Under the pieces are notes generated by a model. It ran no database searches, was not told the DNA's origin, and worked only from the letters and a program-made list of their open reading frames with translations. DNA of 58,855 nucleotides from a virus (lineage: Duplodnaviria > Caudoviricetes), in IMG/VR virus record IMGVR_UViG_3300036915_000009, positions 1 through 58,855 of that record, one strand, 5' to 3'. The position numbers and the translations under genes are program-made. Positions 12,121-33,982 of this stretch are shown one piece after another. Every line of letters starts with the position of its first letter. The first letter of the stretch is position 1.

Positions 12121-12174
12121 GCGATCCTCCGCTGGTGAAAAACCCGCGCCCGGCTTTCGCGGTTCAGCCTACCA

Positions 12175-12519
12175 TCAGGCGCGCGTTCGGTCGCCGGCAA
12201 TGTCCAACGTCAGCGAGCCAAACCATTGGTTGTGAAATTGCTCGGCGAGGCGCACGAGGTGCGAGCCCCCTTCACGGGGCAGGAACGTAAGCCCGGACGG
12301 CTGAAAGCGCCGGAACACGGTGCGAGTCACCTGCTCGCCGCTCGGCCCGGTTACTGTGAATTCCAGCGGCAAGACCACGCCCTCGGGCAACGTGGCGGAG
12401 TAGTCGACCGAGATCAGCACTGGCGTGAAGGTCTGCAGCAACTGATCGCTATCGGTCAGAGTGACGCGGATCCGATCCTCGCCATAGTAGCTCGGCGAGA
12501 TCTCATCGAGGAAGCTCAT
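12175..12519 (-). CDS. Hypothetical Ig-like structural protein
   Basis: ATGA-coupled; FTVTGPSG...FLPREGGSHLVRL. Confidence 0.55.
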   Translation of the reverse strand: MSFLDEISPSYYGEDRIRVTLTDSDQLLQTFTPVLISVDYSATLPEGVVLPLEFTVTGPSGEQVTRTVFRRFQPSGLTFLPREGGSHLVRLAEQFHNQWFGSLTLDIAGDRTRA

Positions 12520-12896
12520 GGGTCCACCACATCCAGGTGCATGAAGACTCGGCCATGGTTGGGGCGCGCGAGCACGATCGTGTAATGACCGGCAGCTGTA
12601 GGCGTGAAGGTTTGCACGCTGGACTGACCAGCGGCGCCCGTGAACACCGGGATCGTCGTGAAAGGCCACTCCACCGGCGTCGCAGTGAACAGCTCTCCGC
12701 CTAGGTTCGAGTCCACCTCACCCGCTACGCCATCGACTGATGCCGTCACAGTGATGGGCGTGCCCGTCGTGCCCACGCGGCGACGGTGAGGCAGGTTCGC
12801 CGCGGTGTTGGTGCGATCCGGCTTACTCGCGGTGGCCGGATCACTCCAGACGGCGGAGGTCACTCCCGAGGTGAATGCAACGGTAAAGTCAGCCAT
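12516..12896 (-). CDS. Hypothetical Ig-like structural protein
   Basis: Beta-rich; QTFTPTAAGHYTIVL. Confidence 0.55.
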   Translation of the reverse strand: MADFTVAFTSGVTSAVWSDPATASKPDRTNTAANLPHRRRVGTTGTPITVTASVDGVAGEVDSNLGGELFTATPVEWPFTTIPVFTGAAGQSSVQTFTPTAAGHYTIVLARPNHGRVFMHLDVVDP

Positions 12897-12912
12897 GGCG
12901 GCGCCGGCCCCT

Positions 12913-13197
12913 TCAGTCCTGTGCTACGTCCGGATCTTCCTCGTCGCGTTGCACGGTCAACGCCCCGAAGGCCTCCCGAGTGGCGCGGAGATCGTCGATC
13001 TTTTCCTGGCACTTCACCCGCTCCGCTTCCAGTGCCGCCACATGCTTGCTCAGCTTCGCGATTTGGCGATCGAGGGTTTGGATGTCCAGCAGCTGCACCG
13101 AGGTCCCGAGCGTCACCACCGCGTGCCGGCTACCAATGCGCCGCAGCTTCGGGGGGATGTGATCGCCGACGCGGGCAAGCTTCTTCTTCGTGGCCAT
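12913..13197 (-). CDS. Coiled-coil hypothetical protein
   Basis: Heptad pattern; in operon. Confidence 0.55.
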   Translation of the reverse strand: MATKKKLARVGDHIPPKLRRIGSRHAVVTLGTSVQLLDIQTLDRQIAKLSKHVAALEAERVKCQEKIDDLRATREAFGALTVQRDEEDPDVAQD

Positions 13198-13200
13198 GGT

Positions 13201-14229
13201 CTACAGAACCTCCTGTGTTTGACGCATCCGATTGCGCCGATAGGTCACCGACACCGAGAGAACGTCCAGCTGATCGTCGAACGAATCCGTTCCCGACTCG
13301 CCAATGATGCGGATCTTGATCCGATGACCGCTGACGATGGTGTGTGAGAGCGAGCCGACCGTGATGTCGTGCGCCGCATCATAGGCGGCTTGGCTTGCTG
13401 GCGCGTCCGTCGTGGATCCGAGCGCGCTGGAGGTGCCCGTGCTCTGGGTGATGTCGTCCACGAACACCTGCGGCGGAAACTCTGGGATGTCGGAGTGGGT
13501 GCCACCAGCAACTCTCACGGTTACGCTCTCCAGCACATCGCCAGGGCTCAGGCGAATCGGCATTGAGAGCTGCTTCGCTATGCTGGTGTCGGAGTTGACC
13601 CAGCGGAGGCCAGACATCACCCAACCAACCGTTGCCGAGCTGCCCGCCTGCGTTGCGACGCCGTCCTCGAGTGGCACGTATCCGGTGCGAACGCTCGGCA
13701 CATCGATCTGAATGGTTTCCTGCTCGCCGATCAGGAAGGTGGCGGTCGATTTTACGTCCAGCGTTGCCGTCGAGAGTAGGCTGGTGGTCGTTCCGGCCCC
13801 GAGTTGCAAAGCACCTGTGGCGCCTTGTTCGAGCAGAAAGGTGGCGCCGTTCTCGATCGTCAGATCACTGCCGAGTTCGAAAAGCACGGCTCCGCCATCT
13901 TCGACGGTTACCAATCCACCGCTTCCGACGGCGGCATCCCCGTCGATCGTCAGCAGGCCGCCTGCCTCCACCAGCAACTCTGCAGTGGACTCGATGACGA
14001 GGTTTGCGGTGCCGAGCACGGTCAGCTCGCCGCCGGCAACGATGTCGATATCATCGCTGTCCAGGCGGACATCGTCGCCCGTGAAGATGAGCGGAGCGCT
14101 CAGGCTGTAGGTGCCGCCTGCAGCACCATCAACGGCCTTGAGTAGCTCGGTTTGCAGATGGGTGACCTGGGTTGAGGTCAGGAGATCCTGCAGCGCCCAG
14201 CCGCCGCTTTTCGCTGCTGTCAGTGTCAT
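13201..14229 (-). CDS. Putative tail fibre / baseplate-attached protein
   Basis: Follows the gp48-like gene; LTV/LTI-GG beta-helix-like repeats then a beta-sandwich-like C-terminus. Confidence 0.55.
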   Translation of the reverse strand: MTLTAAKSGGWALQDLLTSTQVTHLQTELLKAVDGAAGGTYSLSAPLIFTGDDVRLDSDDIDIVAGGELTVLGTANLVIESTAELLVEAGGLLTIDGDAAVGSGGLVTVEDGGAVLFELGSDLTIENGATFLLEQGATGALQLGAGTTTSLLSTATLDVKSTATFLIGEQETIQIDVPSVRTGYVPLEDGVATQAGSSATVGWVMSGLRWVNSDTSIAKQLSMPIRLSPGDVLESVTVRVAGGTHSDIPEFPPQVFVDDITQSTGTSSALGSTTDAPASQAAYDAAHDITVGSLSHTIVSGHRIKIRIIGESGTDSFDDQLDVLSVSVTYRRNRMRQTQEVL

Positions 14230-14239
14230 CGTTCGATCC

Positions 14240-14947
14240 TCATGATCCGAAGCTCGTTAGGTCCAGCAGGTCGACGTCCAGCACGAAGCCGACGCTGGTG
14301 GTGGTGCCGAAGCGTTCCCAGGCTGGGAGCATATCACCGAGCAGCTTGTTCGCGGCGATCAACGCTTTCTTGTCCGCTGTGCTCGGCGCCACGCCCGCGC
14401 CAATGTCCAGCAGGACGAACCAAATGTAATCTTGGGCGTAGTTGGGCAGACGGCTCGACTTGCGCCCGCCTCCGAACGGCTCGCTCGCTGTGTAGTCCTC
14501 GAATGCTCGACCGGGATGGGTGGTGTCGGTCTTGGCTCGGTTGATGGTCAGTACCGCGAAACGCGGATCGATGCGCTGGAGCTCCGCCTCCACGTTGGGC
14601 ACGGTGGCCTCGGGGTTGCGCCGATAGCGCCGGGCAATCGTGGCTCGGCGCTCCTCGGTACTGTCGGCGGGGCTGCTCGTGGTCAGAAACAGCCGCTCAT
14701 AGTAATTGAGCAGGTCGGTCGCCAGCGACGGGAACACCTGCAGCACCGCGCGCTCGCCGAACGTGCTCGCTGCGCCGATGCCGACGGCTTTCGCTTGGCG
14801 CCACAAGCCGTCGACGGTGTTGTCTTCATTGTCGGCGGCGCCCCCTTTGCCCGCGTTCGCGCGCAACGCGAGGTAGACGGTCTCGATGGCCGTCTCGCCG
14901 CCACCGAACTCGATGGGAAAGGGGTTATGCCAGCCGAACCCGCCCAT
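14240..14947 (-). CDS. Baseplate wedge protein (Mu gp48-like)
   Basis: FPSLATDLLNYYERLF...EERRATI...LPAW; position after baseplate J. Confidence 0.65.
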   Translation of the reverse strand: MGGFGWHNPFPIEFGGGETAIETVYLALRANAGKGGAADNEDNTVDGLWRQAKAVGIGAASTFGERAVLQVFPSLATDLLNYYERLFLTTSSPADSTEERRATIARRYRRNPEATVPNVEAELQRIDPRFAVLTINRAKTDTTHPGRAFEDYTASEPFGGGRKSSRLPNYAQDYIWFVLLDIGAGVAPSTADKKALIAANKLLGDMLPAWERFGTTTSVGFVLDVDLLDLTSFGS

Positions 14948-18079: not shown

Positions 18080-18670
18080 TTAGCCGTTGCGCTCGAAGCC
18101 GTCGATCTCGACGGTCAGCCGCCCCGTGCCACCAGCGCCCATCAAGATCTCGTTTGAAACGAGGATTCCTTCCTCGTTCTCCAGCACGCAAATCGGATGG
18201 TCCGGATCCTCGCGCTGCTCATCGATGAATCCTTTGTAAAGCAGCGATGAGTCCGCAAGCTCGCTAAATGAACCCTGCAGCAGCTGAGCACCGATCGTTT
18301 GGGTGCCGGCGGTGAGCGCGCCCGTCGTCCCGATGCGAGCGGACAAGCCACTGGCCGCGAACTCGGGCGAGCGAGCGAGCGCAGTGATGGCAGTGCCGCC
18401 CGTGTGCGCTGCGCTGTAGCTCGTCAGCTTGAACGCGGCGAGCGCCATCTCCTGAGCCGCAGTGAAGCCCGCGATCGTCTGCCAGTAGACCCGGAGCCGA
18501 GTCACCGCGAACACCTTAGACGCGCTCGCGAAACGCGCCGCAAACACATGCCCAGCGCTCGCGGTGCGAGCGGCTACCGTCGTCAGGAGCCCGCTTACAC
18601 CCACGATCGAATAGAACGCGTCCCGGGCGATGCGATTCGGATCTCGAACGTAGCTGGGCGTCACCGCCAT
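18080..18670 (-). CDS. Virion protein, paralog A
   Basis: Colinear paralog of 18671-19240. Confidence 0.7.
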   Translation of the reverse strand: MAVTPSYVRDPNRIARDAFYSIVGVSGLLTTVAARTASAGHVFAARFASASKVFAVTRLRVYWQTIAGFTAAQEMALAAFKLTSYSAAHTGGTAITALARSPEFAASGLSARIGTTGALTAGTQTIGAQLLQGSFSELADSSLLYKGFIDEQREDPDHPICVLENEEGILVSNEILMGAGGTGRLTVEIDGFERNG

Positions 18671-19240
18671 TTAGCGCTCCCAGCCGTCGATTTCGACCGC
18701 CAACACGCCCACGCCCGAGGCGCCCATCAGGACTTCGTTCCGAACGAGCAGCCCTTCCTCTTCTTCGAGGATCAGCGGATGATCGTCGCGTGGCTCATAC
18801 ACACCTTCGAAGGCTGGCGTGGTGCCGAAGCCGCCCGCCCGAAGCAGTGGTTGGCCGGCGATCGTGTGAGTGCCGGCGGTGAGCGCGCCCGTCGTCCCGA
18901 TGCGACCAGCGGCGACGCTTGCATCGGCCTCGCTGGTGATGCGCTTCGCTGGAGTGATGGCAGTGCCGCCCGTGTGCGCTGCGCTGTAGCCCGTCATCTT
19001 GAACAGGGCGACCACCATGGCCTGGGCTGCACCGAAGGCGACGGTGGGGTGGAAGGCCAATCGAACGCGACTGATGAACACCTTCTTGGTGCTGCTCGGG
19101 TTGCGAAGCACGTACAGATGGCCCGCGGTAGCGCTGCCAGCGGCGACCGTGGTGATCAGCCCGCTCGCGCCCCCGTAGTTGAAGAAAGGACGGTTGTAAT
19201 TGTGTTTGGGGTCGATCAGGTTCGACGGTTCGACGGCCAT
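18671..19240 (-). CDS. Virion protein, paralog B
   Basis: Shares YSAAHTGGTAIT, RIGTTGALTAGT and VEIDG[FW]ER with paralog A; AGGAG RBS. Confidence 0.7.
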   Translation of the reverse strand: MAVEPSNLIDPKHNYNRPFFNYGGASGLITTVAAGSATAGHLYVLRNPSSTKKVFISRVRLAFHPTVAFGAAQAMVVALFKMTGYSAAHTGGTAITPAKRITSEADASVAAGRIGTTGALTAGTHTIAGQPLLRAGGFGTTPAFEGVYEPRDDHPLILEEEEGLLVRNEVLMGASGVGVLAVEIDGWER

Positions 19241-19267
19241 TGCATACCTCTCCTGCTGGGTGACAAA

Positions 19268-19283
19268 GAGGCGCGCCTACCTC
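19268..19283 (-). promoter_or_regulatory. AGGCGC-loop hairpin, copy 1
   Basis: mRNA sense GAGGU-AGGCGC-GCCUC, 27 nt before the paralog B start. Confidence 0.55.
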
Positions 19284-19356
19284 CGCGATCGCGTCCCACT
19301 ATGACAGCCGCCCGGATGGCACTACAAAGGGCCGAGCCGGATCCGGTGCTTTTTAA

Positions 19357-19368
19357 GATCCATGGATC
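19357..19368. promoter_or_regulatory. Palindrome GATCCATGGATC, copy 3
   Basis: Divergent intergenic region between 19240(-) and 19417(+). Confidence 0.6.
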
Positions 19369-19416
19369 GGGTTTCGTGCCGGGTATTTGCTGCTGCTCGG
19401 CGCTAGGCTGATCGCT

Positions 19417-19629
19417 GTGAGTTGCGCGCTGCCATCACCGCCTACGCTCGGCTTCACGCTGCCATCGCCAGTCGTGCCCGCGCTGCCCGATCTGCCTGCG
19501 CTGCCCGCTGCGCCCGCTCTGCCTGCGCTGCCATCACCGCCTACGCTCGGCTTCACGCTGCCATCACCAGTCGTGCCTGCGCTGCCCGATCTGCCTGCGC
19601 TGCCCGCTGCGTTCTGTCCGCTCGCTTGA
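19417..19629 (+). CDS. Small Pro/Leu-rich protein with a 33-aa internal duplication
   Basis: MSCALPSPPTLGFTLPSP...FCPLA; 99-bp repeat period; stop abuts the spike gene stop. Confidence 0.5.
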   Translation: MSCALPSPPTLGFTLPSPVVPALPDLPALPAAPALPALPSPPTLGFTLPSPVVPALPDLPALPAAFCPLA

Positions 19630-20406
19630 TCAAACAGGCGAGACGAACAAGCTCGGGCAAGGCGGCGAAGAAGCGCCAGGCAGCAGCGCCACGCCAGCAT
19701 CCGCTTCGGCGCCCACGTATACGTTGCCCTTCAGCGTGATCTTCTGAGCGTTCACCACGAACTCGCCCGCGCTCATGCGCCCGAAGGTGCTGCCATCGCA
19801 TGACCACACGATGCCGGGATCGCCGCCGCCCGCGTCCTCGGTGAGGCTGAAGAAGACGCCGTCGCCATGGATCAGCGAGATCGAGCTATTGCCATCGGTT
19901 GGATCGATGCTGATGGCGTGGGCTTTGGTCGGTGCCCCGTCGCCGTCGAACTCATAAGGGACGTAGATCGTGGTCACGTTGCCCTTCTTGCTGCCCGTGT
20001 TGGCGGAGGTCATCGTGTGGGCGACGAACGCCCCACCGTAGCCACCAAACATCAGCTGACCCTTCGCTGGTGCTGACGTGCCGCCAGCGTTGATGGCGCG
20101 GTGGATCCTCAGATCTCGAAAGGCGAACGGCGTCAGTCCGTCCTCGGTGCGAGCCGCCAGTGCCTCCGCGAACAAGTCGCCTTCTGGTTCAAGTGGGCGG
20201 CCTACGATGCCGAGCGCGCTGTAAGTGTCTTGCTCGTGCGCCTGCTCGCCTTGTTCGTTGTCTTCCTCAGCGCCAGTTATTGCGCCGTTCGCATCAACGG
20301 CAAAACCAGCGATGCCGGCAACGTTGAAAAGGGTCGCCTTGTTCGTGCCCGCCACGCTGGAGGCGACCACTCGAACGAACTCGATCACTTGATTGAGAGC
20401 TGACAC
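19630..20406 (-). CDS. Baseplate spike / assembly protein V (Mu gp45-like)
   Basis: YSALGIVGRP...RDLR...KGQLMFGGYGG then beta repeats; downstream of the hub gene. Confidence 0.65.
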   Translation of the reverse strand: MSALNQVIEFVRVVASSVAGTNKATLFNVAGIAGFAVDANGAITGAEEDNEQGEQAHEQDTYSALGIVGRPLEPEGDLFAEALAARTEDGLTPFAFRDLRIHRAINAGGTSAPAKGQLMFGGYGGAFVAHTMTSANTGSKKGNVTTIYVPYEFDGDGAPTKAHAISIDPTDGNSSISLIHGDGVFFSLTEDAGGGDPGIVWSCDGSTFGRMSAGEFVVNAQKITLKGNVYVGAEADAGVALLPGASSPPCPSLFVSPV

Positions 20407-20412
20407 CAGCCG

Positions 20413-20664: not shown

Positions 20665-20816
20665 AATTGCCCCACGATACGACCAAGATGGACAGGCCGA
20701 TCAGTTTTTTTTGTTCAGCCTGAGCACCGATCCATGTATTTGATCCAGGTTCAGGGCCAAGAGGGGAAACCAAGACCAAACCAACAACCAAGACCAACCA
20801 CGGAAGGGGGCCAGCG

Positions 20817-22052: not shown

Positions 22053-22150
22053 CGTAGGCGGTTGGGTTGGCGGTATACAGTCCGCGCGGGCGGGGTCCGG
22101 GGGTCGAAAGCGTCCCCCCCCGTTTCCCTCCGGGCCTTCCCCGCGACCTA

Positions 22151-23658: not shown

Positions 23659-23662
23659 TGCT

Positions 23663-24613: not shown

Positions 24614-26653
24614 TCAGTAGCCTCCCAGCGCTTGGCTCGGTCCCATTGCCATTGGCCCGCGCGTGCCTGGACCGGGATCCGCGTTGCCAGCCGCTCCCCT
24701 TGATCCAGGGTTGGCAAACGCAACGCGCAACGTGGTGCCGCCCATGGCGGACCTCACCGCCTGAGCGATGGCGCGCGCTGACTGATCGTCCAGGTTTACC
24801 TGCTGTTTTTTACCAGGGCGCGTTACAGGTTGCTCAGTTGGTTGTGGAGCGGTGGGCGTCGGGGTTGCTGGTGTGCCGGCTGCCTGCGCCTTCTCCAGCT
24901 TGTCAATATGGGCTTTCTTCCACTTCAGATCCTCCCGCGCCTTGGCGAGTTCCGTCTCCTCCATGCGGCGCTGATCGTCGCTCAGAAAAAGGCTGTTGCT
25001 GAAGCTTCCCAGTTCCTTTTCCTTGGCCGCGATGGCCTTCTCGGCGAAGCGAGCTTCGGCCCGTTCCTTGCTCAGCGACTTGCTCCTCCCAGCGAGCTTT
25101 GCGCGCGCCACCGAAATGCCACCAGTACTCTTCGCGTTCTCGTCCGCGTCCTTGCTGATTTTCTCGGCCGCCAGAGCGCCAGCAATTGCGACGGCTGCCA
25201 GAGCGCCGGCACCCTTGATCAGATTTCCGACCTTCATCCCGCCCACCACATGAGCCTGCGCGATGGTAGCAGCGGCGCCGGTCGCACCCGTCGCGTGCCC
25301 CGAGACAATACTGGCCATCATACTGGTGAGGAAGCCTTTCGCTGCCACGCCACCGAGCCCCAGCGTGCCCGCTAGGACGGGGTTTTTCGCAGCGAAGGAA
25401 ACAAAGTTCCCGAACAGCTTCGCGATCTCGGGCAGCGCAGCCGATAGATCTTCCATCGCTGTGAGTATTTCGGGAGAAGCGAAGGCCTGGTTCAAGTTTT
25501 CGAGCGCCACCCGAAGCCGCGCTTGCGGCTCGGTCGCCTTCTTCGCTGCTTCCTCCTGCAAAGCCGCTGCGTTGAGAGATGTCTTGCCGAACTGAGCAAT
25601 CGATTCGTCCAGCGAGCGCAGCGCTTGCTCGGTCGCTTCTTTGCCCCGCAAGCCGCCGGCCTTGGCTCGCTGCAGCGCTTCCTCGAAGGGCTCGGTGAAC
25701 AGAATGCGGAGCGCGTCCTTTTCTTCGGGGCCGATGAAAGCAGTCTGAAGCGCCTCCATTCCCTTCTTGCCGCGCGAGAGCATTACGCGCATCCGGGCTA
25801 GGAAGTCCTTTTCGTTGAGCAGCTTGCTAGCATCGATGCCGGCGATCTTGGCCATCGTCTTGAGCGTATTGGGGCTCCCGAGCTTCACGAGCATGTTTTG
25901 AATGCCGGACACTTGGCGACCCAAACCACCCATCTGAGCATCCGTGGCGTTCATGGCGCCCGAAAGGAACTCCAGCGCCCGCTTGCCCTCTAGCCCCGCC
26001 GTGATCAGTTTCGCCCCAACCACATCGATGACTTGGGCGAACGCTTCAAAATTGGGTCCACCTTGCTGCGCTTGCTCGTACACCTGCGCCAGCGCTTCCT
26101 TGGCTTCGGCGGCACTCAGCCCAAACTTACGCTGCATTTGTTGTGCGATGGTCGCTACCGTCTTGACCTCTTCGTTGGTCGCGGTGGCAGCCATGCCGAT
26201 GGCCTCCATCATTTCTTTGGTGAACTTCAGATCCTTGGTAGCGCCAAACACTTCCTCGAACGCGGTGGCCATCTCCTCGCTCGTGCGAGTGGTCTTGGAT
26301 GCTGAGCGCTCAACGATTTGCTGGATGTCTGCCGACTTGGTCATCGCCCCGGTGGCCGTCTGCACCCGGAAGGCGAGCGTCGAATAAGTCGAGTTGAGTT
26401 GCACCGCGTTTTTCAACGCAGCGCCAGCGCTGAACGCACCGCCGAGCGTGGCGATGGCCGTCACCCCTCGCTTCGCAGCGCTTGCTAGGCCGCCTAGTTC
26501 CTTCTTGGCTCCCGCAAGGCCCGCCTTGAGATGCTTGGCAGCATTCTTTCCCGTCACGCCCATGCGGCGCAACGAATCGCCGGCTCGCTTCATCCCAGCA
26601 AGGAATTGCGAGTTGTTCAGTGTGAGCTTAACGCTTGCTTCGCGCTGCGCCAT
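24614..26653 (-). CDS. Tape measure protein
   Basis: 679 aa, Ala/Lys-rich helical with a hydrophobic segment; follows the chaperone gene. Confidence 0.85.
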   Translation of the reverse strand: MAQREASVKLTLNNSQFLAGMKRAGDSLRRMGVTGKNAAKHLKAGLAGAKKELGGLASAAKRGVTAIATLGGAFSAGAALKNAVQLNSTYSTLAFRVQTATGAMTKSADIQQIVERSASKTTRTSEEMATAFEEVFGATKDLKFTKEMMEAIGMAATATNEEVKTVATIAQQMQRKFGLSAAEAKEALAQVYEQAQQGGPNFEAFAQVIDVVGAKLITAGLEGKRALEFLSGAMNATDAQMGGLGRQVSGIQNMLVKLGSPNTLKTMAKIAGIDASKLLNEKDFLARMRVMLSRGKKGMEALQTAFIGPEEKDALRILFTEPFEEALQRAKAGGLRGKEATEQALRSLDESIAQFGKTSLNAAALQEEAAKKATEPQARLRVALENLNQAFASPEILTAMEDLSAALPEIAKLFGNFVSFAAKNPVLAGTLGLGGVAAKGFLTSMMASIVSGHATGATGAAATIAQAHVVGGMKVGNLIKGAGALAAVAIAGALAAEKISKDADENAKSTGGISVARAKLAGRSKSLSKERAEARFAEKAIAAKEKELGSFSNSLFLSDDQRRMEETELAKAREDLKWKKAHIDKLEKAQAAGTPATPTPTAPQPTEQPVTRPGKKQQVNLDDQSARAIAQAVRSAMGGTTLRVAFANPGSRGAAGNADPGPGTRGPMAMGPSQALGGY

Positions 26654-26671
26654 CGGCTCGCCTCCGTCCGG

Positions 26672-27319
26672 TCAGGATGTTTCGGAGTTCGTCGGGGGTG
26701 ACGAGTCCAGTGGCGAGGTCGGCGATGGCTGAACCCACGAGGGCGCGTTCGGAGAGCGCAAGGCTTCCTCGGCCATGAGCACTATACAACTGTACTGCGC
26801 GGGCCCAACCATACCGACTAAAGGGGCGGGGGTTTTCTCCCCCGCGATGCGAACAATGGTCTGCCAGAGTTGCTCGCCATCGAGTTCGCCGAACCGCGGA
26901 TCGAGCATCTCCACCCAGGCATCGTAACGTCCCCACACCTCCGACAGTGTTTGCCAGTCGTAAGTGTCCAACAGCGCCTTGGCGTCTATGACGTGCTGAT
27001 CGAACGTGCCGGGGTCGCGAATCGCGAAGGCGAGGATCGAATAATTCTCCAGATCGTCCAGGTAGTCTTTGTCTCGATCCAGGTCGAGCTTCAGTTCGGC
27101 GGCAAGTGCTCTCGCCTGGATCCGCGCTCGAAACCGCTGCTGGTTGGTCACGTTGCGCAGCCGGACGTCCACCTCTTTCAAGTCGCCGTTTTTCGTGCGG
27201 CGTTTGAGCGTTGCTGGCAGGTGCAGCACCTCGTTGTGCTCTTCGACACCAAGAGCCTGCCAGTTGTCCAGCGCGATCCGCACCGCGCGATCTTCGGCAG
27301 GCTCCTCAGCGTCACTCAT
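26672..27319 (-). CDS. Tail assembly chaperone
   Basis: Between tube and tape measure; carries an in-frame slippery heptamer. Confidence 0.75.
   Translation of the reverse strand: MSDAEEPAEDRAVRIALDNWQALGVEEHNEVLHLPATLKRRTKNGDLKEVDVRLRNVTNQQRFRARIQARALAAELKLDLDRDKDYLDDLENYSILAFAIRDPGTFDQHVIDAKALLDTYDWQTLSEVWGRYDAWVEMLDPRFGELDGEQLWQTIVRIAGEKTPAPLVGMVGPAQYSCIVLMAEEALRSPNAPSWVQPSPTSPLDSSPPTNSETS
26819..26825 (-). other. Candidate -1 ribosomal frameshift site C CCU UUA
   Basis: X XXY YYZ heptamer in the chaperone frame; the -1 frame stays open to 26628. Confidence 0.55.
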
Positions 27320-27337
27320 GACTTTGCAAGTTCCGCC

Positions 27338-27721
27338 TTACAGGCGGACTTCCTCCATGTGTCCGATGAACGTTGCCGACCCCTTGGTGGCGTCGTCCAG
27401 TGGCGCGTCCAGATCGCAGCCTTGATATGCGCCGTTCACGGTCCAGGCGACATTTGGACCCTTCGCGCGCAGCTGGCGGACGGTGCCCGTTTTCACGTCC
27501 CGCCAATAGTTGCGCTCGGGGCCGTCCTCGTCGATCGCGAAGTCGAACGAGATCGAGCATTCTTCGGTGCCGAGCGTGATGCCGGCTCCCTTGCGCCGCA
27601 GGGTGTGAACCTGCTTCGCATTGTTCGTCAGCGTGATCGTGAAGTTTGTTACCTGGACCAGGTCGCCGTTGCCCTGCGCCAGAAAAACCTTCGGGTAAAT
27701 CAGTTGTTCGCCGTCTGCCAT
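27338..27721 (-). CDS. Tail tube protein
   Basis: 127 aa beta-rich ORF right after the sheath. Confidence 0.75.
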   Translation of the reverse strand: MADGEQLIYPKVFLAQGNGDLVQVTNFTITLTNNAKQVHTLRRKGAGITLGTEECSISFDFAIDEDGPERNYWRDVKTGTVRQLRAKGPNVAWTVNGAYQGCDLDAPLDDATKGSATFIGHMEEVRL

Positions 27722-27754
27722 TGGATGTGCCTCTCGTTAAGTGCCTTCCGCCGT

Positions 27755-29263
27755 TCAGGCGACCTTGCTTGCGACCACGCCGAGCTTCGCGAGCGGCTTG
27801 ACGATCGCGAGCGGTAGGAAAATGTTCACCTGGGTCGGGTCCACGTCATCGATGGCCACCACCAGCTCATCGTTCTCGATGGATGCATCCAGTGCGGGCT
27901 TCTGCACCACGCCCGAGCGAGTCCAGAACGTCAGCCGCGAGATCACGAACTCTTCAACGTCCCTTCGCTCCACCACTCCGGGGGGCAATGCATCAGCGCC
28001 CGGCGGGAGATCTTCCGAGATCGAAGCGTTGGCGAACTGCTGCGGAAGCACGGTTCGCATATCGCGAGCAACCGCATACATGCCGAGCGTGTCCGTCATG
28101 TCGAAAGCGCGGTAATCCTGGGTCGCGCCGTCCAGCGAGTGGGTCGTGATGGGCCGCACCACCACCACCTGGCTCGTCCCTTGTGCCACCTGCAGCGGAG
28201 TGACGCCGTTCTCCAGAAGGTCCTCGACCTCGGCCGCCGTGAGGCGCTCGGCTGAAACATCTCGTGGACCGTAGAGGTTATGCACGTTGCCGATCCGGTT
28301 GTAGTTCGGTCGCAGCGCAGCGAAGGCGAGCGCGTCGCCAGCTTCGGACGCCGCCAGTTCGCACGGCAGATCGTCGAAGGTCTGCCCAAATACGTATTCG
28401 CAGGCTTCGTTATTGCGGTCGATGGCGCCTGCCTTCACGTCCGCGATCGCGCCCGTGTGACCGATCCAAGCCACCTGGAGCAACGCATCAGCGCCGCTTT
28501 CGTAGGTATTGATGTGATCGGTCAAACGCTCGGCGTTGCTGCTGCTGGTGGCGGCCGCATCGGCGTTGCTGGTGCAGCCGATGATCGCCGCGTATTCGGT
28601 GGTTGAGATGGCGGTGAGCGCGGTCGTCCAATCGGGCTCGGTCGTGCCGGATGCAAGCGCGGTTGGGTTGGCTGCGATCGTGATGCCACCTCCGCCTTCG
28701 ATGACCGAAGCGAAGATCCTTACATCATTGCCCCAAGGGCCAGCGACCTTCGCGGTGTAGTCGATGTCGCCGGTTCCACCATCGGCAACCGTGACGAACA
28801 GATCGTTTGCCTGTTGGTTGATGTAACTCACCGCGCGGGTCACGAAAGCGGTATTCGCTTCGCCGCTGAGCCATGGGACATCGATGGATCGACCGTGGAT
28901 CCGAAAGCGGATCGTGCTGTTCTCGGTGGCGGTGCCGCTAAAGGTCTGGGTCTCCGAAGCCGCGGCGCCGCCGCTCGCTGTTGGGGCGAGCACGTCCAGC
29001 TTCCCCAAGCCATTGCGCTCGAAGAAGCGCTTCGCCGCGAGATGGCCTGGCGTGCCTGCGCCGAGCGCTGTGGCCACGTCATCGGCGCCGAAGCACTGGC
29101 GTACCTCGGTGTCTACTGTGATGTCGCCCGCGGAACTCTTGGGGGCGATGATCAATGCTCTCAGGGCTGCGGTGCCTGGGTTGGCTACTGCAGCGAGCAG
29201 ATTGACGGTGAGGAAAAGTCCTGGAGTCTTGACGCTACTCGCTACCGCTTTCGGGATGGTCAT
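27755..29263 (-). CDS. Tail sheath protein (Mu gpL-like)
   Basis: VKTPGLF, TAKVAGPWGND, LASGTTEPD, LLENGVTPL, RPITT. Confidence 0.9.
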   Translation of the reverse strand: MTIPKAVASSVKTPGLFLTVNLLAAVANPGTAALRALIIAPKSSAGDITVDTEVRQCFGADDVATALGAGTPGHLAAKRFFERNGLGKLDVLAPTASGGAAASETQTFSGTATENSTIRFRIHGRSIDVPWLSGEANTAFVTRAVSYINQQANDLFVTVADGGTGDIDYTAKVAGPWGNDVRIFASVIEGGGGITIAANPTALASGTTEPDWTTALTAISTTEYAAIIGCTSNADAAATSSSNAERLTDHINTYESGADALLQVAWIGHTGAIADVKAGAIDRNNEACEYVFGQTFDDLPCELAASEAGDALAFAALRPNYNRIGNVHNLYGPRDVSAERLTAAEVEDLLENGVTPLQVAQGTSQVVVVRPITTHSLDGATQDYRAFDMTDTLGMYAVARDMRTVLPQQFANASISEDLPPGADALPPGVVERRDVEEFVISRLTFWTRSGVVQKPALDASIENDELVVAIDDVDPTQVNIFLPLAIVKPLAKLGVVASKVA

Positions 29264-29618
29264 CGCGCTTGTCCTGTCGTTTGACGGGAGGTGCGCCTAC
29301 CTCCGATGGGTTGCTAGCTAGTGTAGTTGTGGCTCGGGCCTGTTTGGCCTTCAGCTGGGGGGCTTGGCTCGCTCGCCACTCGTCTCCGGTGCGAGCTCGC
29401 AGCGAGCCGTTCGCGATGGCTCGCTGATACTCACGACGATAACGCCGAAGCTCAGCGTAAGGGATGGCGACGATCTGTTCGGGGAAGTAGTTGATGCCGT
29501 TCGAGCCATCGAACCGCCGAGCGGCTCCGATGAGCACCCGCGAGGCGCCGAAGCGCGCCACTGGCTTGCCAGGCACCGAGCTGACGAACAGACCGAAGGG
29601 CTCCGAAGGATCCGCCAT
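29235..29618 (-). CDS. Small pre-sheath protein (Mu gp38-like position)
   Basis: EYQRAIANGSL motif; directly upstream of the sheath. Confidence 0.5.
   Translation of the reverse strand: MADPSEPFGLFVSSVPGKPVARFGASRVLIGAARRFDGSNGINYFPEQIVAIPYAELRRYRREYQRAIANGSLRARTGDEWRASQAPQLKAKQARATTTLASNPSEVGAPPVKRQDKRDDHPESGSE
29287..29304 (-). promoter_or_regulatory. AGGCGC-loop hairpin, copy 2
   Basis: GGAGGU-AGGCGC-ACCUCC, 23 nt before the sheath start. Confidence 0.55.
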
Positions 29619-29661
29619 GGCCGACAAACTACGCCATGCCAGCATCGGCGTCCACAACGGG

Positions 29662-30642
29662 TTACGGATCGTCCGTCATGTCGACCTCCACGTCCACGAC
29701 AGTGAGATCACCGGTTGGCTCGGGCGCCTCCCCGCCAGGTAACGCCTGCGCGATCGCGGAAGTGATCCATGTGTTGAAGGTTCGCGAGTCGATGGGCTGC
29801 AGGGTCTGATTGACGCGCAGGCTGAGGAAATAGATGTAGTGCTTCGCTCCTCGTGCCAACCGATCCCGGTTGACGATCTCGACCCCGGCGCCCACGCTGG
29901 AGAGCGCTTCGCCGTCATCGTTGCATTGGCGATCGGTCAACAGGCGCGTGGCCGCCTGCAGGATCAAAAGGCCTTCCTGACGCCGTTTGGTGTCCCCTTC
30001 CAGTCGCCCGCTGATGGCGTAGAGGCTGAAGGTCTCCCGCATGAAGCGCACCCGCCGAGCGCCACGGGTCGAGCCCTGGCGCAGGCCGGCCGTGGTGCCT
30101 TCGGCTGGCTCGGTGCTCTGCCACGCCAGCATCAGCGCGGGGAAGCGGGCGAGCAGGCTCGCGAAAATGTCCTTCGATGGGTTGGCGGCATCCAGATCCT
30201 CGAAGAAAGCGACCTCCTTCACCAGTTGCCCCGTGTCCGCGCCGTCCACCATGGCAGCGTCGAGCGTGGCGGTTGCGACGAACCCTTCGACTTCAGGCGA
30301 AAAGCGCAGGGTGGTGCCGTCCGCCAAGTTGTGGCGAGCGCCGCCCACGTTGCTCGTGATGGCGACCGATCCCGTCGCGCCGCCTGAGATAGTCCACGCT
30401 CCACCCGTACCGTTCGCGTTCACGGTGGCGGGGTTGCGAGTGACCTTGAACACGAGATCGCTGCGCTCCTGGCCGCCGATCACAGGCACCAGATACGTAT
30501 TGGGCTGCAGCACCTTGTCCGCGCCAGCGTCGGCGGTGACGGTGACAGTGCCGGTCGAACGCACCCCGCACATAGGCGAGAGTTGCGCGAGGATGGCTCT
30601 GCCGAGCTTTTCGATTGTGTTCAGAGCAAGGGACTCGGTCAT
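29662..30642 (-). CDS. Tail terminator-like protein (Mu gp37 position) with an inserted baseplate-J-like barrel
   Basis: Gene order plus FPALMLAW...FSLYAIS; residues ~28-136 parallel the barrel of 15466-17043. Confidence 0.55.
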   Translation of the reverse strand: MTESLALNTIEKLGRAILAQLSPMCGVRSTGTVTVTADAGADKVLQPNTYLVPVIGGQERSDLVFKVTRNPATVNANGTGGAWTISGGATGSVAITSNVGGARHNLADGTTLRFSPEVEGFVATATLDAAMVDGADTGQLVKEVAFFEDLDAANPSKDIFASLLARFPALMLAWQSTEPAEGTTAGLRQGSTRGARRVRFMRETFSLYAISGRLEGDTKRRQEGLLILQAATRLLTDRQCNDDGEALSSVGAGVEIVNRDRLARGAKHYIYFLSLRVNQTLQPIDSRTFNTWITSAIAQALPGGEAPEPTGDLTVVDVEVDMTDDP

Positions 30643-31127
30643 GCCACATGGCCCCGGCTAGGCGGCGCTTCGCTCGGCGATGTGATGCGGGCGACGAGCA
30701 TCTCCGCCATATCGGCCACGTCCTGCTCGAACGCTTGCGTTTCGATGTCGAAGAAGTCGCGCAGCGGGATCTTTTTCCGCGGCTGATGACTGGCATGGTA
30801 CTTCGCATAAGGCACATTGGTGAACACCTCGGCGAAGTCGACGCCATGATCGGGCGTGATGCTGCCCACCAGGTTGCCGGTGTCCTGCAGCAGCTGTGGG
30901 TTGCCGAGCCAGCGGCGCCCTCTAGGCTTGGGCAGTCCCCTGCGCTGCCACCAGAAGTCAGGCCAGGAGCCGAAGCCCTTGGTCTCGAATTGATCGAGCA
31001 CGTATTGGTGGAGTGACTCGGCGGTGACCGCCAGCACTTCCTGGATGCTTAGCTGACCGCGCCGCGTCAGCAAGCCGAGCACATCGCCCATTTCGCGGAA
31101 ATGGAGGTCGATTGTATCGGCCATCAA
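30639..31127 (-). CDS. Virion morphogenesis / tail completion protein (Mu gpG-like)
   Basis: FETKG..W...LQDTGNLVGSI...TNVPYAKYH...IPLRDF. Confidence 0.8.
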   Translation of the reverse strand: MMADTIDLHFREMGDVLGLLTRRGQLSIQEVLAVTAESLHQYVLDQFETKGFGSWPDFWWQRRGLPKPRGRRWLGNPQLLQDTGNLVGSITPDHGVDFAEVFTNVPYAKYHASHQPRKKIPLRDFFDIETQAFEQDVADMAEMLVARITSPSEAPPSRGHVA

Positions 31128-31630
31128 AAGCCACCCGGTCCGTTGCGATCGTTGGGGTTGTTTGGATCGCGATTGAAAATGAACGTGGGCGTGGCGGTGC
31201 TCTTTTCCCCGCGCAACGTGCTGTTGATGCCAGCTCCACCGCTCTCCAGTTCCAGGCGGCTGCGGATCTCGCCCCTGCTCATCGCCTTCAGCTCGGCTCG
31301 CGAGCGTTGCCCCAGGCCGTCGAACGGACCTTTGCCTTCATCGTCCAACCACTCTGTTTTGGCTTCGCCAGCGAGCTGCGCACAAATGCCAGCCCAGGCG
31401 CGGACGATCTGGGAGTCAGTCACCAGCAAGGCCAGCTGGGCGAGAGTGAAACCCTTGCCCAGCAGGATGCCGGTAACGACGTCGTTGGCGTCATTGATGA
31501 TCGCTTCCAGCCGAGTCTCGTCGGTGCCCGCCACGAGGCCATCGCCATCGAAGTCGAACAGCTGCACCACGCGCTGGGGCGTGAAGCGGTCCTCGAGCTT
31601 GCTCCGATCACCAAACGCAATCGACGCCAT
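31124..31630 (-). CDS. Head-tail adaptor (Mu gp36 / DUF1320-like)
   Basis: LEDRF...VQLFD...AIINDANDVV...LKAMSRG; gene order. Confidence 0.7.
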   Translation of the reverse strand: MASIAFGDRSKLEDRFTPQRVVQLFDFDGDGLVAGTDETRLEAIINDANDVVTGILLGKGFTLAQLALLVTDSQIVRAWAGICAQLAGEAKTEWLDDEGKGPFDGLGQRSRAELKAMSRGEIRSRLELESGGAGINSTLRGEKSTATPTFIFNRDPNNPNDRNGPGGF

Positions 31631-31634
31631 GCGA

Positions 31635-32036
31635 TCAGCCCAGCAGGTTCGCGCCCGGAGGCACGTGAGACGGGGTTACGCTCATCGCTGGCAGCGAACT
31701 CGGATGAACGGGCATTGGAAGGCCGAGATCGCGATGCGTGATCGGCCCGAACTTGATGCCGTCTGCCTCCGCCGCCTTCCGCACTGGCGCCGGTACTTTG
31801 TCGTACTGAGCGCCGCGGTAAACGTGGACGCGGCGACCTTGCACGAGCCCGATCCAGTTGGTCTGAGCCACGTTGCCGGCCTGTGTCAGGTGGACGTTTG
31901 GCTCGGGCTTGAAATCATACCGAGGCGCGCGCTTCTGCTGGCCTGGCAGCGAGGGACTTGCCGCCATGGGCTGGGGCTCGCTCTCCTCGTCGGTGCTGGC
32001 GTTCTCTGGGCGGACTTGGTTTTTCTTGTTTGCCAT
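31635..32036 (-). CDS. Hypothetical protein
   Basis: AAGGA RBS; between capsid and adaptor genes. Confidence 0.6.
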   Translation of the reverse strand: MANKKNQVRPENASTDEESEPQPMAASPSLPGQQKRAPRYDFKPEPNVHLTQAGNVAQTNWIGLVQGRRVHVYRGAQYDKVPAPVRKAAEADGIKFGPITHRDLGLPMPVHPSSLPAMSVTPSHVPPGANLLG

Positions 32037-32068
32037 GGGGTCCTTTTCGGGGGTTGTGTGGAAAAGAG

Positions 32069-32113
32069 AAAGGCCGCGAAACCACCGCGTGGGAGCGAGC
32101 TTTCGCGGCCTTT
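32069..32113 (-). terminator. Terminator-like hairpin downstream of the capsid gene
   Basis: 13-bp inverted repeat AAAGGCCGCGAAA/TTTCGCGGCCTTT followed on the - strand by CTCTTTT. Confidence 0.55.
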
Positions 32114-32145
32114 GCTGGGGTGCAGTCAGTCGCACCCGCTTGGGA

Positions 32146-32295
32146 TCACTTCATCTGATCACAAGGCGTCGGCGAATAGGCCATCTCACTGCCCACTTCA
32201 AAGCCGAGAGCACTAGCGATGGCGAGCAGGACAGCCACGATCGTCCGCACAATTGCCGGGCGCATTGGTTTGCTGGGTGGATTCACGGTTGTCAT
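32146..32295 (-). CDS. 49-aa single-TM peptide (below the ORF-track cutoff)
   Basis: MTTVNPPSKPMRPAIVRTIVAVLLAIASALGFEVGSEMAYSPTPCDQMK; AAGGGA RBS. Confidence 0.5.
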   Translation of the reverse strand: MTTVNPPSKPMRPAIVRTIVAVLLAIASALGFEVGSEMAYSPTPCDQMK

Positions 32296-32325
32296 GGGGC
32301 TGTCCCTTTCGCTTGGGGGGAGGGG

Positions 32326-33429
32326 TTACTGAATGGTGTTGATCAGGATGCCGCCAACGTTGTTTGCGACCATCTTCACCTGCTCGGCATGGCCGGAGGC
32401 GAGGAAGGCGCCACCGTGCAAGCCACGGCGGTCCAGCTGGAACTCGCGACTGGTGAAGCCATTTCCACTCGGCCCACGCCTGCGGAAAGTCTTGCACGTC
32501 ATGATGTCCTCGCCGGTGAGTGGTGTGCCAGCGGGGGTGCCCGTCGCGATCACATTGTCGGTCAGGATGTAGTCCAGAGCTCCAGTGCTGGGGTTCAGCA
32601 CCTTGCCGGCGACCACGTGGAACGGCGGAAGCCCTGGGATCTGGAAGTCCATGTTGTTCGCTGCGGCCGTTGCTGCAGCAGCGCCAGCGCCCGGTGCTCC
32701 ATCGCCCAGCATGGTGCGAAGGTGATCTCGCACCGCCTCGCTGCGAATGAAGTGATGGGCCACCGCTGGGTTCAGCCAGAGGTCGGTCACTGGCTGCGCT
32801 GATGCCTGGATCAGATCAAATATATCGCTGACGGGATCGCCATTGGCTTGCGAGTTCCACTCCACTCCGCTGGAGATGGTGAATTGGTTGCCTGACGCCC
32901 AGTTCGCAGCAGTGCTGAGCAGGCCGCCCGTGCCGAATACGCGAATCTCGCGATCGAGCGCCAGCGCCCATGCAATGCGCCGGCCCACCGCGGCCCGAAC
33001 GTCATAGAGCCCATTTCCTTCGTTGGCGTTCTCCTCAGTTACCGCCGGAATGAAGCCGCCGAGCGCGCGTTCCTGCACCCGGTAGGTGTCCAGCGATGAC
33101 TCGGGATCCACTTCGGCGATGTCTGCCTGGATCGAGCTGAGCACGTTGATTTGCTGGAAGGCATTGTTCAGACCGAACACTCGAAACTGGTCGGTGTCCT
33201 TGCCAACCAGCATGATCGGACACGCCTCGTCCGCTCGGTAACCCGGTGGTCTGTAGCCAGCCATCAGGGTGTCGACCTCTTCGGAGATCGTCACGTCAGA
33301 CGGCGACAGAGCCAGGTTGATCACATCGCCAGCGCGCCCAAGTCCGGGTGCGTCGGCTACGAGGCGGACGGTCATCCCGTCATTTCCCCCCGAGCGTGGG
33401 GGGGCCGCGAGGGCAGCGCTTGTTACCAT
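32326..33429 (-). CDS. Major capsid protein
   Basis: SPSDV...GYRP...ADEACP; position after protease and decoration genes; AAAGGA RBS. Confidence 0.8.
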   Translation of the reverse strand: MVTSAALAAPPRSGGNDGMTVRLVADAPGLGRAGDVINLALSPSDVTISEEVDTLMAGYRPPGYRADEACPIMLVGKDTDQFRVFGLNNAFQQINVLSSIQADIAEVDPESSLDTYRVQERALGGFIPAVTEENANEGNGLYDVRAAVGRRIAWALALDREIRVFGTGGLLSTAANWASGNQFTISSGVEWNSQANGDPVSDIFDLIQASAQPVTDLWLNPAVAHHFIRSEAVRDHLRTMLGDGAPGAGAAAATAAANNMDFQIPGLPPFHVVAGKVLNPSTGALDYILTDNVIATGTPAGTPLTGEDIMTCKTFRRRGPSGNGFTSREFQLDRRGLHGGAFLASGHAEQVKMVANNVGGILINTIQ

Positions 33430-33455
33430 GGTATTCTTCCTTTCGGATCCCAAGC

Positions 33456-33479
33456 GGGGTGGCGCGCCTACCGAGCCCC
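33456..33479 (-). promoter_or_regulatory. AGGCGC-loop hairpin, copy 3
   Basis: GGGG-CUC-GGU-AGGCGC-GCC-A-CCCC, 26 nt before the capsid start. Confidence 0.5.
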
Positions 33480-33496
33480 AGAGTGTTTTCTAAAGT

Positions 33497-33520
33497 GGGT
33501 TTGGGTTTGGGTTTGGGGGG
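33497..33520 (+). repeat. (GGGTTT)3GGGGGG tandem repeat
   Basis: Directly visible in the decoration-capsid intergenic region. Confidence 0.8.
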
Positions 33521-33524
33521 TGGA

Positions 33525-33914
33525 TCAGGAGTCCAGCTGACCGCGCTGGATGTCGACCTCGATAACGTCACCGTCATCGTCGGCGGCGGTGGCTGCGTAG
33601 CCGAGGATGTATTCACCCGCGGCGGCCACAAAACCTTTGCCGTCTGTGCCACCGGTCACTGGCTCGCCAATGGCGATCGCTTCGCCTGCTTCGACCTTGC
33701 CCCGATTGTTGTGTTGAACATCACCCGTATAGCCATTGAGCACCTCCGCCATGGTGACGCCGTCAATCGGCGCAGTGCCATCGGTGGCCGGGGCGATGGA
33801 GTCGACGGTGGTGCTCTTTATGACTAGGCGCAGGGCCGAGATGGTCGACCCGGTGCCGTTGTACCCGTGGCGGATGTCGCCGCTATCGGCAACAATTGCT
33901 CTCGCTGAAGTCAT
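33525..33914 (-). CDS. Capsid decoration/cement protein (DUF2190-like)
   Basis: VEAGEAIAIGEPVTGGTDGKG...ILGYAATAADDDGDVIEV. Confidence 0.75.
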   Translation of the reverse strand: MTSARAIVADSGDIRHGYNGTGSTISALRLVIKSTTVDSIAPATDGTAPIDGVTMAEVLNGYTGDVQHNNRGKVEAGEAIAIGEPVTGGTDGKGFVAAAGEYILGYAATAADDDGDVIEVDIQRGQLDS

Positions 33915-33960
33915 GGCGCTTGTCCCTTTTTTCTTTGGGGGGTTTGAAGTTTTTGAGTCA

Positions 33961-33982
33961 TCGAAGGCGCGCCTACCCTCGA
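33961..33982 (-). promoter_or_regulatory. AGGCGC-loop hairpin, copy 4
   Basis: UCGAGGGU-AGGCGC-GCCUUCGA, 46 nt before the decoration gene. Confidence 0.55.

Follow-up and report, generated by a model that had tools for sequence, protein, structure and literature searches.

An AGGCGC-loop hairpin ahead of structural genes in a small clade of environmental phages

Described leader elements and the AGGCGC-loop hairpin

From the long structural operons of phages, capsid, scaffold, decoration and sheath proteins are needed by the hundreds and their neighbours in a few copies, and to our knowledge the way in which this is set within one transcript is understood in very few phages. This problem of output control would have a compact answer in a transferable leader hairpin placed at just the genes of abundant proteins. 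Here, we describe a stem-loop with an AGGCGC hexaloop that lies ahead of such genes in the window, i.e., the whole analysed stretch of 58,855 bases, which represents a complete IMG/VR virus record (completeness estimate 97%, G+C content about 63%). Judged from sequence comparison, the AGGCGC-loop hairpin is a real, conserved and strand-specific motif of a small phage clade of about 12 related environmental records.

Among the described systems, the boxB/N pair and the MS2 and PP7 operators likewise combine a short hairpin and a conserved loop with variable stems, a likeness which suggests protein recognition of the present element as well. The boxB hairpin carries a GNRA-like pentaloop on a stem of 5 base pairs (bp) and lies once behind an early promoter; in contrast, the element described here occurs in several copies in late operons and has a hexaloop, which reads AGGCGC in 20 of 21 aligned copies and TGGCGC (UGGCGC in RNA) in the remaining one (loop-anchored, gap-free alignment with 20 distinct copies). 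A copy outside this alignment, in L008, also has TGGCGC. No gene for an N-like or coat-like regulator was found among the Pfam and PHROG matches, with many small open reading frames (ORFs) having no match. Sites of CsrA/RsmA carry GGA in the loop, whereas the AGGCGC loop contains none and GGA occurs only in some 5' arms. Promoters of the N4 type combine a giant phage RNA polymerase with a loop of 3 nucleotides (nt); here, the longest ORF, of 972 amino acids (aa), encodes a fusion of portal and minor head protein, and the loop comprises 6 nt. Leader hairpins of LoaP and other NusG paralogs as well as the RfaH ops element are comparable as leader elements that possibly recruit an elongation factor. 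However, the match of the present element to ops, which includes GGTAG, covers just 7 of 12 positions, the ORFs scanned yielded no NusG-like gene, and the copies described here are many and lie before individual genes.

The ompA leader of E. coli and the RNase III sites of T7 resemble the element as short stem-loop leaders of strongly expressed genes in long operons, but these hairpins need no conserved loop or form long duplexes, whereas the present stem comprises 5–8 bp below a near-invariant loop. Clade-specific repeats at gene starts provide a further comparison. In Cluster K mycobacteriophages, the start-associated sequence (SAS) is a 13-bp GGGATAGGAGCCC at the initiation site itself, and in the extended SAS (ESAS) two 17-bp inverted repeats flank a spacer that mostly measures 4–13 bp; neither occurs outside the non-structural right arm, and there are 11–19 copies per genome, with no assigned function (PMC3203893). 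The elements are alike in being short clade-specific repeats at a subset of gene starts, in one orientation and conserved by gene family; the present element, however, shares no sequence with SAS or ESAS, lies 23–58 nt upstream, precedes structural genes only and has 2–5 copies. The PeSLs of T4-type phages are reported to be composite promoter-terminator motifs in hyperplastic early regions (PMC2839356; PMC4122927). PeSLs and the AGGCGC hairpin would both be short stem-loop motifs of a regulatory kind that look portable from gene to gene, as in the apparently inserted cassette of about 50 nt ahead of a baseplate gene described below, whereas the present sites have neither a U-tract terminator nor a sigma-70-type promoter and lie in late structural genes.

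Rfam 15 gave no match in the whole window at gathering thresholds, and at an E-value of up to 1 around the sites only an unrelated small-RNA model was hit below threshold, inside the decoration gene (20 bits vs. a threshold of 45). The 17 terminator-like sites in 18500–35000 include none of the five hairpins, whose 3' flanks lack a T run; the single site resembling a sigma-70-type promoter (16–18 nt spacing) in the same region, at 23710–23682, is not at a hairpin. The nearest described classes are SAS and ESAS, the PeSLs and hairpin-binding regulators such as lambda N/boxB; the element lacks the defining features of each and is best placed as a so far undescribed variant among putative cis-regulatory leader hairpins. 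This agrees with the original prediction made from the letters of the window, which had not recognized the hairpin as a described element: apart from the negative Rfam result, no description was found by full-text searches, in which the motif sequence itself was not queried. With the hairpin, the few clade-specific phage repeats of the start-associated type gain another member that lends itself to testing; it would also be a candidate part for expression tuning in G+C-rich hosts, with a limited immediate reach given the small clade of about 12 records.

Copies, structure and conservation of the hairpin

The sequence GGTAGGCGC has four exact sites in the window, all on the minus strand (19273–19281, 29293–29301, 33464–33472 and 33969–33977), compared with 0.52 expected and with at least four in none of 100 shuffles. 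At these four sites, the 12-mer GGTAGGCGCGCC matches three times exactly and once with one mismatch; at up to three mismatches its matches in the window are at background level (138 vs. 148 expected). The four sites belong to hairpins S1 to S4, and a scan for hairpins closed around NGGCGC detected a fifth one, S5, which was absent from the list of the original prediction. All five lie on the minus strand. S1 (GGAGGU-AGGCGC-GCCUCU, 19267–19284) is found about 26 nt 5' of the ATG at 19240, S2 (GGAGGU-AGGCGC-ACCUCC, 29287–29304) 23 nt 5' of the sheath ATG at 29263, and S3 (GGGG-cuc-GGU-AGGCGC-GCC-a-CCCC with an internal loop, 33456–33479) 26 nt 5' of the major capsid ATG at 33429. S4 (UCGAGGGU-AGGCGC-GCCUUCGA, 33961–33982) lies 46 nt 5' of the ATG at 33914, and S5 (AGUCGG-AGGCGC-CCGGCU, 34763–34780), inside the 568-aa protease ORF, lies 26 nt 5' of an in-frame internal ATG at 34736. 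The distance of 23–46 nt to the start codons that had been predicted for the first four copies was found again, and the hairpins are separate from the ribosome-binding sites, as proposed.

A covariance model built from the hairpin family, R1, was used to score the window and its relatives. R1 ranks the five copies at the top of the window, with 31.2 bits for S2, 26.7 for S5, 26.1 for S1, 22.9 for S4 and, as the lowest score, 17.8 for S3, and it also recovers the copies of relatives. The next match, with 17.0 bits, is a mere GGAGG ribosome site adjoining an ATG. A variant at 12161–12173 (minus strand), GGU-AGGCUGA-ACC, had originally been listed as a member of the family and is rejected here: it scores 9.6 bits (E-value 5.2), within chance matches, has a stem of only 3 bp and a different loop of 7 nt, overlaps a stop codon and abuts a terminator-like hairpin. 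An origin of GGTAGGCGC from a tRNA D-arm, part of which it resembles, was not upheld: ARAGORN found no tRNA in the window. One chance match, in L060, had the look of tRNA genes by eye. Pairing of the loop with the downstream leader (GCGCC before the start behind S4) was not general across the copies and was dropped.

In the alignment, 81.3% of the cells of the 8-bp helix are standard pairs, compared with 59.0% in shuffles (0 of 500 as high), and the covariation score amounts to 0.551, compared with at most 0.15 when the 3' partners are slid by 1–3 columns. Changes on both sides were found at seven of the eight pairs tested, and the five inner pairs show between one and five pair types each. 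The pair adjoining the loop is GC in six copies, UA in six, UG in four and CG in two, with two unpaired, and is followed by a second pair with GC in 20 and a third with GC in 14 and CG in six copies. At the fourth pair, AU (12) occurs next to UG (3), UA (2), CG (1) and GU (1), with one copy unpaired, and at the fifth GC (16) next to AU and GU (1 each), with two unpaired. Over these inner five pairs, nine G·U cells stand against two A·C cells, a bias that speaks for a fold of the sense strand. The same loop is carried by two stem classes, GAGGY/RCCUC and (C)GUCGG/CCGRC, one of which has a further nucleotide on either side of it (GGU-loop-RCC vs. GG-loop-CC), and RNAalifold, applied to eight scaffold leaders, predicts the AGGCGC-loop helix alone.

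Compensatory pairs of this kind, present on one strand only, are found here as in structured RNAs, among copies that are related to each other. The prediction of a hairpin that is specific to one strand, keeps its loop and covaries in its stems is in this respect borne out, whereas the constant GGU closing claimed along with it is a feature of the four listed copies only and gives way to G-C, C-G, U-A, U·G or G·A in S5 and the relatives. Moreover, copies of one genome have a closing variant in common: the two GAGG-type copies close with C-G in L104, with G·A in L099 and with U-A in L098, and three of four copies in the window close with U·G. The pattern indicates either conversion between copies or co-evolution with a reader.

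Enrichment before structural genes, the lack of which in relatives would have spoken against the original prediction, is also seen in the relatives, at the scaffold, sheath and decoration genes of about 12 records. Among the sites read, the hairpin precedes the scaffold gene in 11 records, the sheath gene in eight and the decoration gene in four, and once each the capsid gene (window), the tail paralog gene (window) and a baseplate wedge gene (G006). An exact IMG/VR scan with the 16-mer GAGGTAGGCGCRCCTC returned 17 stretches, six of which belong to relatives of the window phage and have the motif before the sheath gene and, in one phage, before the decoration gene as well. By alignment of five sheath proteins (65–69% identical to that of the window), 19 sheath loci were obtained and the DNA was read at 17. 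The element precedes the sheath gene at seven of these 17 related loci, all seven with at least 60% sheath identity; it is absent there from L101 and L102 (phage G008, identical in the stretch read, 64% sheath identity) and from ten less similar loci (25–51% identity).

The scaffold copy equivalent to S5 was found in ten other records. Copies outside the training set of R1 were recovered with 27.0 (G002), 28.9 (L216), 25.7 (L009) and 24.2 bits (L008), and in G006 within the range of 24.2–28.9 bits; at the scaffold place of G008, only CGUC-GGA-GACG was found, and the best R1 score of this phage is 13.8 bits. Decoration copies equivalent to S4 occur in L098, L099 and L104, while none of the relatives examined has a copy before the capsid gene at the place of S3, and relatives by capsid protein (56–61% identity) have short spacers without a copy before the decoration or capsid genes. 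An IMG/VR scan for GTCGGAGGCGCCCGR gave 93 stretches; of the 77 newly numbered loci checked by tblastn, among the best 80 of 93, five are relatives with the scaffold hairpin, and L216 is the only new record. A paired arrangement, with two GGTAGGCGC about 500 nt apart, was found in 53 IMG/VR stretches and was discarded: the repeat-rich loci inspected (e.g., L016, L033, L042) are tandem or coding repeats, and no hairpin-type context appears in the copies listed, at loci for which homology was not checked.

The coding context of the copies differs from place to place. S1, S3, S4 and the decoration copy of L098 lie in non-coding spacers, the sheath copies lie in the tail of the upstream ORF, where the frame GTA GGC GCA reads ..E-V-G-A-P.., and S5 lies in the protease ORF in a different frame (GAG GCG CCC). 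Mean column identity in the sheath copies is 0.88 over the stem-loop, compared with 0.61 and 0.58 in the flanks. Identical bases in different frames or in none, together with this island in variable flanks, argue for a constraint on the nucleotides and not on a peptide. In G006, the baseplate wedge gene lies on the genome strand opposite to that of the sheath gene of the same record, and its leader has a scaffold-type copy on the strand of the gene together with a ACGGGUGCC box before the ATG; at the same spot, G001, G002 and G007 have only about 20 nt. The element consequently follows transcription and not the genome strand, which counts against a role of the replication strand or in packaging. 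As far as these comparisons go, gain and loss of the element involve a leader cassette of about 50 nt, which behaves as a unit open to copying to other genes.

Possible modes of action

We give an even chance to the reading of the element as a cis-acting leader stem-loop in sense-strand RNA, which would raise the output of the gene behind it post-transcriptionally, as the original prediction had also proposed. In this reading, the stem-loop would form in the RNA of late structural operons, with a G+C-rich stem of 5–8 bp and the AGGCGC hexaloop, at a distance of 23–58 nt 5' of the ribosome-binding sites from which it is separate, at scaffold, decoration, capsid, sheath and some tail genes. The likeliest route would place the hairpin near the 5' terminus of an mRNA that is either processed or started internally and that the hairpin would protect, while the invariant loop would be read by a trans-acting factor. 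This factor would probably be a host protein, because no candidate phage gene tracking the element was found. Action in the form of RNA, a loop-binding factor and a rise in expression are what we infer from the observations.

Hints on transcripts come from a salt marsh metatranscriptome, produced in another study than the DNA run that is the possible source of the window record, a low-depth run in the form of contigs, from which RNA ends and strand are not definable and whose library may contain DNA. Contigs map to the regions of the capsid, decoration, scaffold and S1 genes, while parts of the late region including the sheath gene have no RNA contig in this low-depth run. One contig (19098–19285) ends 1 nt 5' of the S1 stem, a weak hint at a hairpin at the 5' terminus, given that contigs cannot define ends. 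A GTAnnnY motif at 34786–34793 (minus strand) recurs at the equivalent places of L098, L099, L100, L104, L105, L111, L124, L008, L009 and L101, in the forms GGTAAAAC, GGTACGCT, GGTACCCT, TGTACAAC and GGTATGTC. This GTAnnnY or TAnnnY-like hexamer lies 10–14 nt 5' of the scaffold hairpin in most records and 25 nt in L104, and a ACGGGUGCC box stands a few nt before the scaffold ATG in relatives. GTAnnnY could be a -10-like element and ACGGGUGCC a ribosome site, and an internal promoter at the hexamer, placing the hairpin at the very 5' end of the RNA, would fit; the hexamer was not seen at the sheath copies of relatives.

Several observations weigh against such an RNA leader with a loop-binding factor. 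A generic 5' stabilizer would need no invariant loop, and no binding factor was found among the phage genes profiled. The genes that all five complete carriers possess and G008 lacks are replication and tail genes (a YqaJ-like exonuclease, DnaB, a DnaT-like protein and tail genes) and the unassigned ORF 7703–8413; as G008 is 88% complete and ends inside the tail module, this presence/absence profile cannot settle the partner. The sole RNA-related domain is that of an ASCH-domain protein (46613–46999, plus strand, Pfam E-value 4e-11), a putative RNA-binding fold, and this candidate was rejected, with no homolog in five related records. A further metatranscriptome contig bridges S4. Folding energies of single sites are unexceptional (z = +1.25 for S1, -1.66 for S2, +0.89 for S3 and -0.32 for S4), and the case for a hairpin accordingly builds on conservation and covariation, not on stability. 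Much of the covariation is supplied by two stem classes that are repeated in related genomes, so that the cells are not independent events; moreover, the GAGG/CCUC stem is nearly invariant in the sheath copies of relatives, and L099 keeps the G·A mismatch at the closing position of both GAGG-type copies. A symmetric dimer that binds DNA would likewise agree with complementary changes in an inverted repeat, and since the paralogs behind S1 have no assignable function, not all genes behind the element can be counted among those of high-copy proteins.

A signal at the DNA level, in which the duplex of 12–22 bp is the core of a phage-specific late promoter or the operator of a dimeric activator or repressor with the arms as half-sites, is possible and in our view doubtful. 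Positions 23–58 nt before start codons would suit a promoter with a short leader, the TAnnnY-like hexamer 5' of most scaffold copies means that transcription may start nearby, and the contig end at S1 fits a transcription start as well as a processing site. In addition, the sequence itself is conserved: GAGGTAGGCGCACCTCGCGA is identical in several genomes with only 60–69% sheath identity, in S1, S4 and L104, AGGCGCGCCT forms a perfect palindrome of 10 bp, and closing variants particular to a genome, such as those of L104 and L099, would be expected if a genome-specific protein reads those bases. However, half-sites of one protein should be constant, whereas the outer arms vary yet pair (S4 UCGAG/UUCGA, S3 GGGG/CCCC, scaffold GUCGG/CCGAC); the one-nucleotide difference on each side of the loop would be hard for a reader of duplex DNA, and the excess of G·U over A·C also disagrees with it. 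The element is G+C-rich and has no AT-rich melting region. The TA of GGTAGG is not conserved, being absent in L099 (GGGAGG), L104 (GGCAGG) and L105 (GGTTGG), where the arms stay complementary in two of three cases, which argues against a -10-type reading. A scan for the sigma-70 consensus was negative at all five sites, and no sigma factor, RNA polymerase or activator family was found in about 80 frames scanned, many ORFs being without any match. Our preference for an RNA hairpin derives from the covarying stems, the G·U bias, the one-nucleotide closing difference between the classes and the loss of TA in three genomes.

If the hairpin acts in RNA, it could also serve processive antitermination, with the nascent hairpin loading a factor onto RNA polymerase for read-through of the long structural operons, a principle documented for lambda N at boxB and for the NusG paralog LoaP at a leader hairpin. 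The conserved loop of a short hairpin, its place in transcribed leaders, its orientation along transcription and the terminator-like hairpins of the late region (e.g., 20867–20836) would agree with this, but we regard it as improbable: the 2–5 copies per genome stand directly before particular genes of abundant proteins and not once at the operon start, no boxA-like linear partner was noticed in the copy flanks read, no N-like, Q-like or NusG/KOW family matched in the ORFs scanned (many small ORFs having no match), and the loop is a hexaloop instead of the GNRA-like pentaloop of boxB. Very improbable, to our mind, is a mimicry of the helix between Shine-Dalgarno (SD) and anti-SD sequence, by which the hairpin would keep an anti-SD-like segment off the true ribosome site or would itself be a docking or standby signal for ribosomes. 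Here, the 5' arm is indeed SD-like (GGAGG, GAGGG, CGGAGG) and the 3' arm resembles the 3' end of 16S rRNA (ACCUCC), with GGAGGU/ACCUCC, as in S2, being the canonical SD:anti-SD duplex. The element always precedes a start codon, the 3' arm of S1 (GCCUCU) could pair with the true site AGAGGU instead, and loop-less relatives at the S1 place have ACCUC 5' of a GAGGU ribosome site, a pairing which in G001, G002 and G006 is a possible masking helix that S1 would relieve. Nevertheless, the distance to the start varies widely, pairing with the true ribosome site is not general (absent in S2, S4 and S5), and the invariant loop would stay unexplained. Hardly credible is the absence of any function of its own, in which case the element would be a recombination scar, a short repeat that gene conversion has multiplied or a side effect of coding constraints. 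Copies within a genome are more alike than copies at the same place of other genomes, the baseplate copy of G006 resembles a duplicated leader cassette, and two site classes overlap ORFs; on the other side stand the retention at scaffold and sheath places across records with only 60–69% sheath identity, the conservation island, the identical bases read in different frames or in none, and the strict rules of strand and position.

A bolder extension of the RNA leader reading, improbable as we see it, would be a portable leader that boosts expression, in which the stem mimics the SD:anti-SD helix (GGAGGU/ACCUCC) and the AGGCGC loop recruits a host factor associated with the ribosome or RNA polymerase. 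If this were true, output would rise wherever a cassette of about 50 nt is placed before a gene, including places within a different ORF such as the nested scaffold start, and the element would represent a new class of bacterial enhancer of translation or transcript fate, moved between genes by phages.

Genes behind the copies and further features of the window

The window contains a long minus-strand block with terminase, portal, protease/scaffold, cement-like head protein, major capsid, sheath, tape measure, baseplate hub and wedge and endolysin genes, while genes of replication and recombination (DnaB, RuvC, a YqaJ-like exonuclease and two DNA methylases) lie towards its ends. Named phages are distant kin, as a search with the sheath protein gave only five records with 26–30% identity, and no prophage relative was found among 185,579 species genomes by capsid protein or sheath alignment, which leaves no clue to the host.

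The sheath and capsid assignments of the original prediction are upheld by the tail sheath gene behind S2 (27755–29263, minus strand, phrog_165, E-value 5.8e-55) and the major capsid gene behind S3 (32326–33429, minus strand, phrog_1005, major head protein, E-value 1.1e-16, with the ATG read from the sequence). The decoration protein named for S4 is less clear-cut: the 129-aa head protein (33525–33914, minus strand) is cement/decoration-like or scaffold-like, matching phrog_673, which is labelled scaffolding (E-value 7.5e-16), and Pfam Phage_cement_2 with 20.5 bits, under the cut-off of 24. S2 lies in the poorly conserved C-terminal tail of a 140-aa ORF (29235–29657, minus strand) that overlaps the sheath start and has tblastn homologs of 37–47% identity in all five related records.

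The ORF around S5 (34002–35708, minus strand) matches the protease family phrog_328 and has an in-frame methionine at residue 325. The C-terminal part opened by this ATG at 34736 is helical and scaffold-like, and the ATG probably starts a nested scaffold protein (34002–34736, minus strand); nested scaffold genes are known for Mu and lambda. In L098, L099, L104, L008 and L009, a TAA or TAG triplet stands shortly 5' of the scaffold hairpin, which is possibly the stop codon of the protease (frames unchecked).

Behind S1, the tail module encodes two proteins of 189 and 196 aa (18080–19240, minus strand), whose predicted nature as a paralog pair is confirmed by 51% identity. Neither PHROG nor Pfam gave a match; the fold prediction is a low-confidence beta-sandwich (mean predicted local distance difference test score, pLDDT, of 60) without a PDB match at an E-value of up to 0.001, and structure comparison returned only weak jelly-roll, C1q/TNF-like and receptor-binding-domain rows. 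At the S1 place, 5' of the homolog of 18671–19240, G001 and G002 have GGTACCTC and G006 has GCACCTC, without the loop. Just 5' of S1 and the beta-sandwich paralogs lies a gene (19353–19700, minus strand) with a weak collagen-repeat match and two direct repeats of 87 nt (19426–19611, 98% identical, 99 nt from start to start), and this gene and the paralogs may form a fibre-like module. A repeat family with the 12-bp palindrome GATCCATGGATC occurs at or near gene ends (10420–10449, 19345–19374, 35496–35525 and 55463–55492), with one copy about 70 nt 5' of S1.

A second leader family, AAAGGAAACCAAGACCA, stands directly before the ATG of small, probably early genes on the plus strand (45135–45158, 45467–45490, 45799–45822, 46258–46281 and 47938–47961), with three copies exactly 332 nt apart and weaker copies at 858–881 and 20762–20785; it resembles the start-associated sequence and is distinct from the AGGCGC hairpin. 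In the same part of the window, a 55-nt repeat with two small hairpins by eye has two copies on the plus strand (47540–47594 and 47884–47938, 85% identical), the second of which lies directly 5' of a AAAGGAAACC leader copy. In a 233-nt spacer of the tail module, a strong terminator-like hairpin (20836–20867, minus strand) consists of a 13-bp stem followed by TATTTTGT, and a 411-aa ORF on the plus strand without a family match (20817–22052) starts beside it. Finally, a 2.1-kb stretch between terminase and portal (38155–40400) has no convincing minus-strand gene and contains a plus-strand ORF (38155–39072) with a match to phrog_2164 and homologs in four relatives; the stretch may be a small inverted module, or the start of the portal gene may have been called too far upstream.

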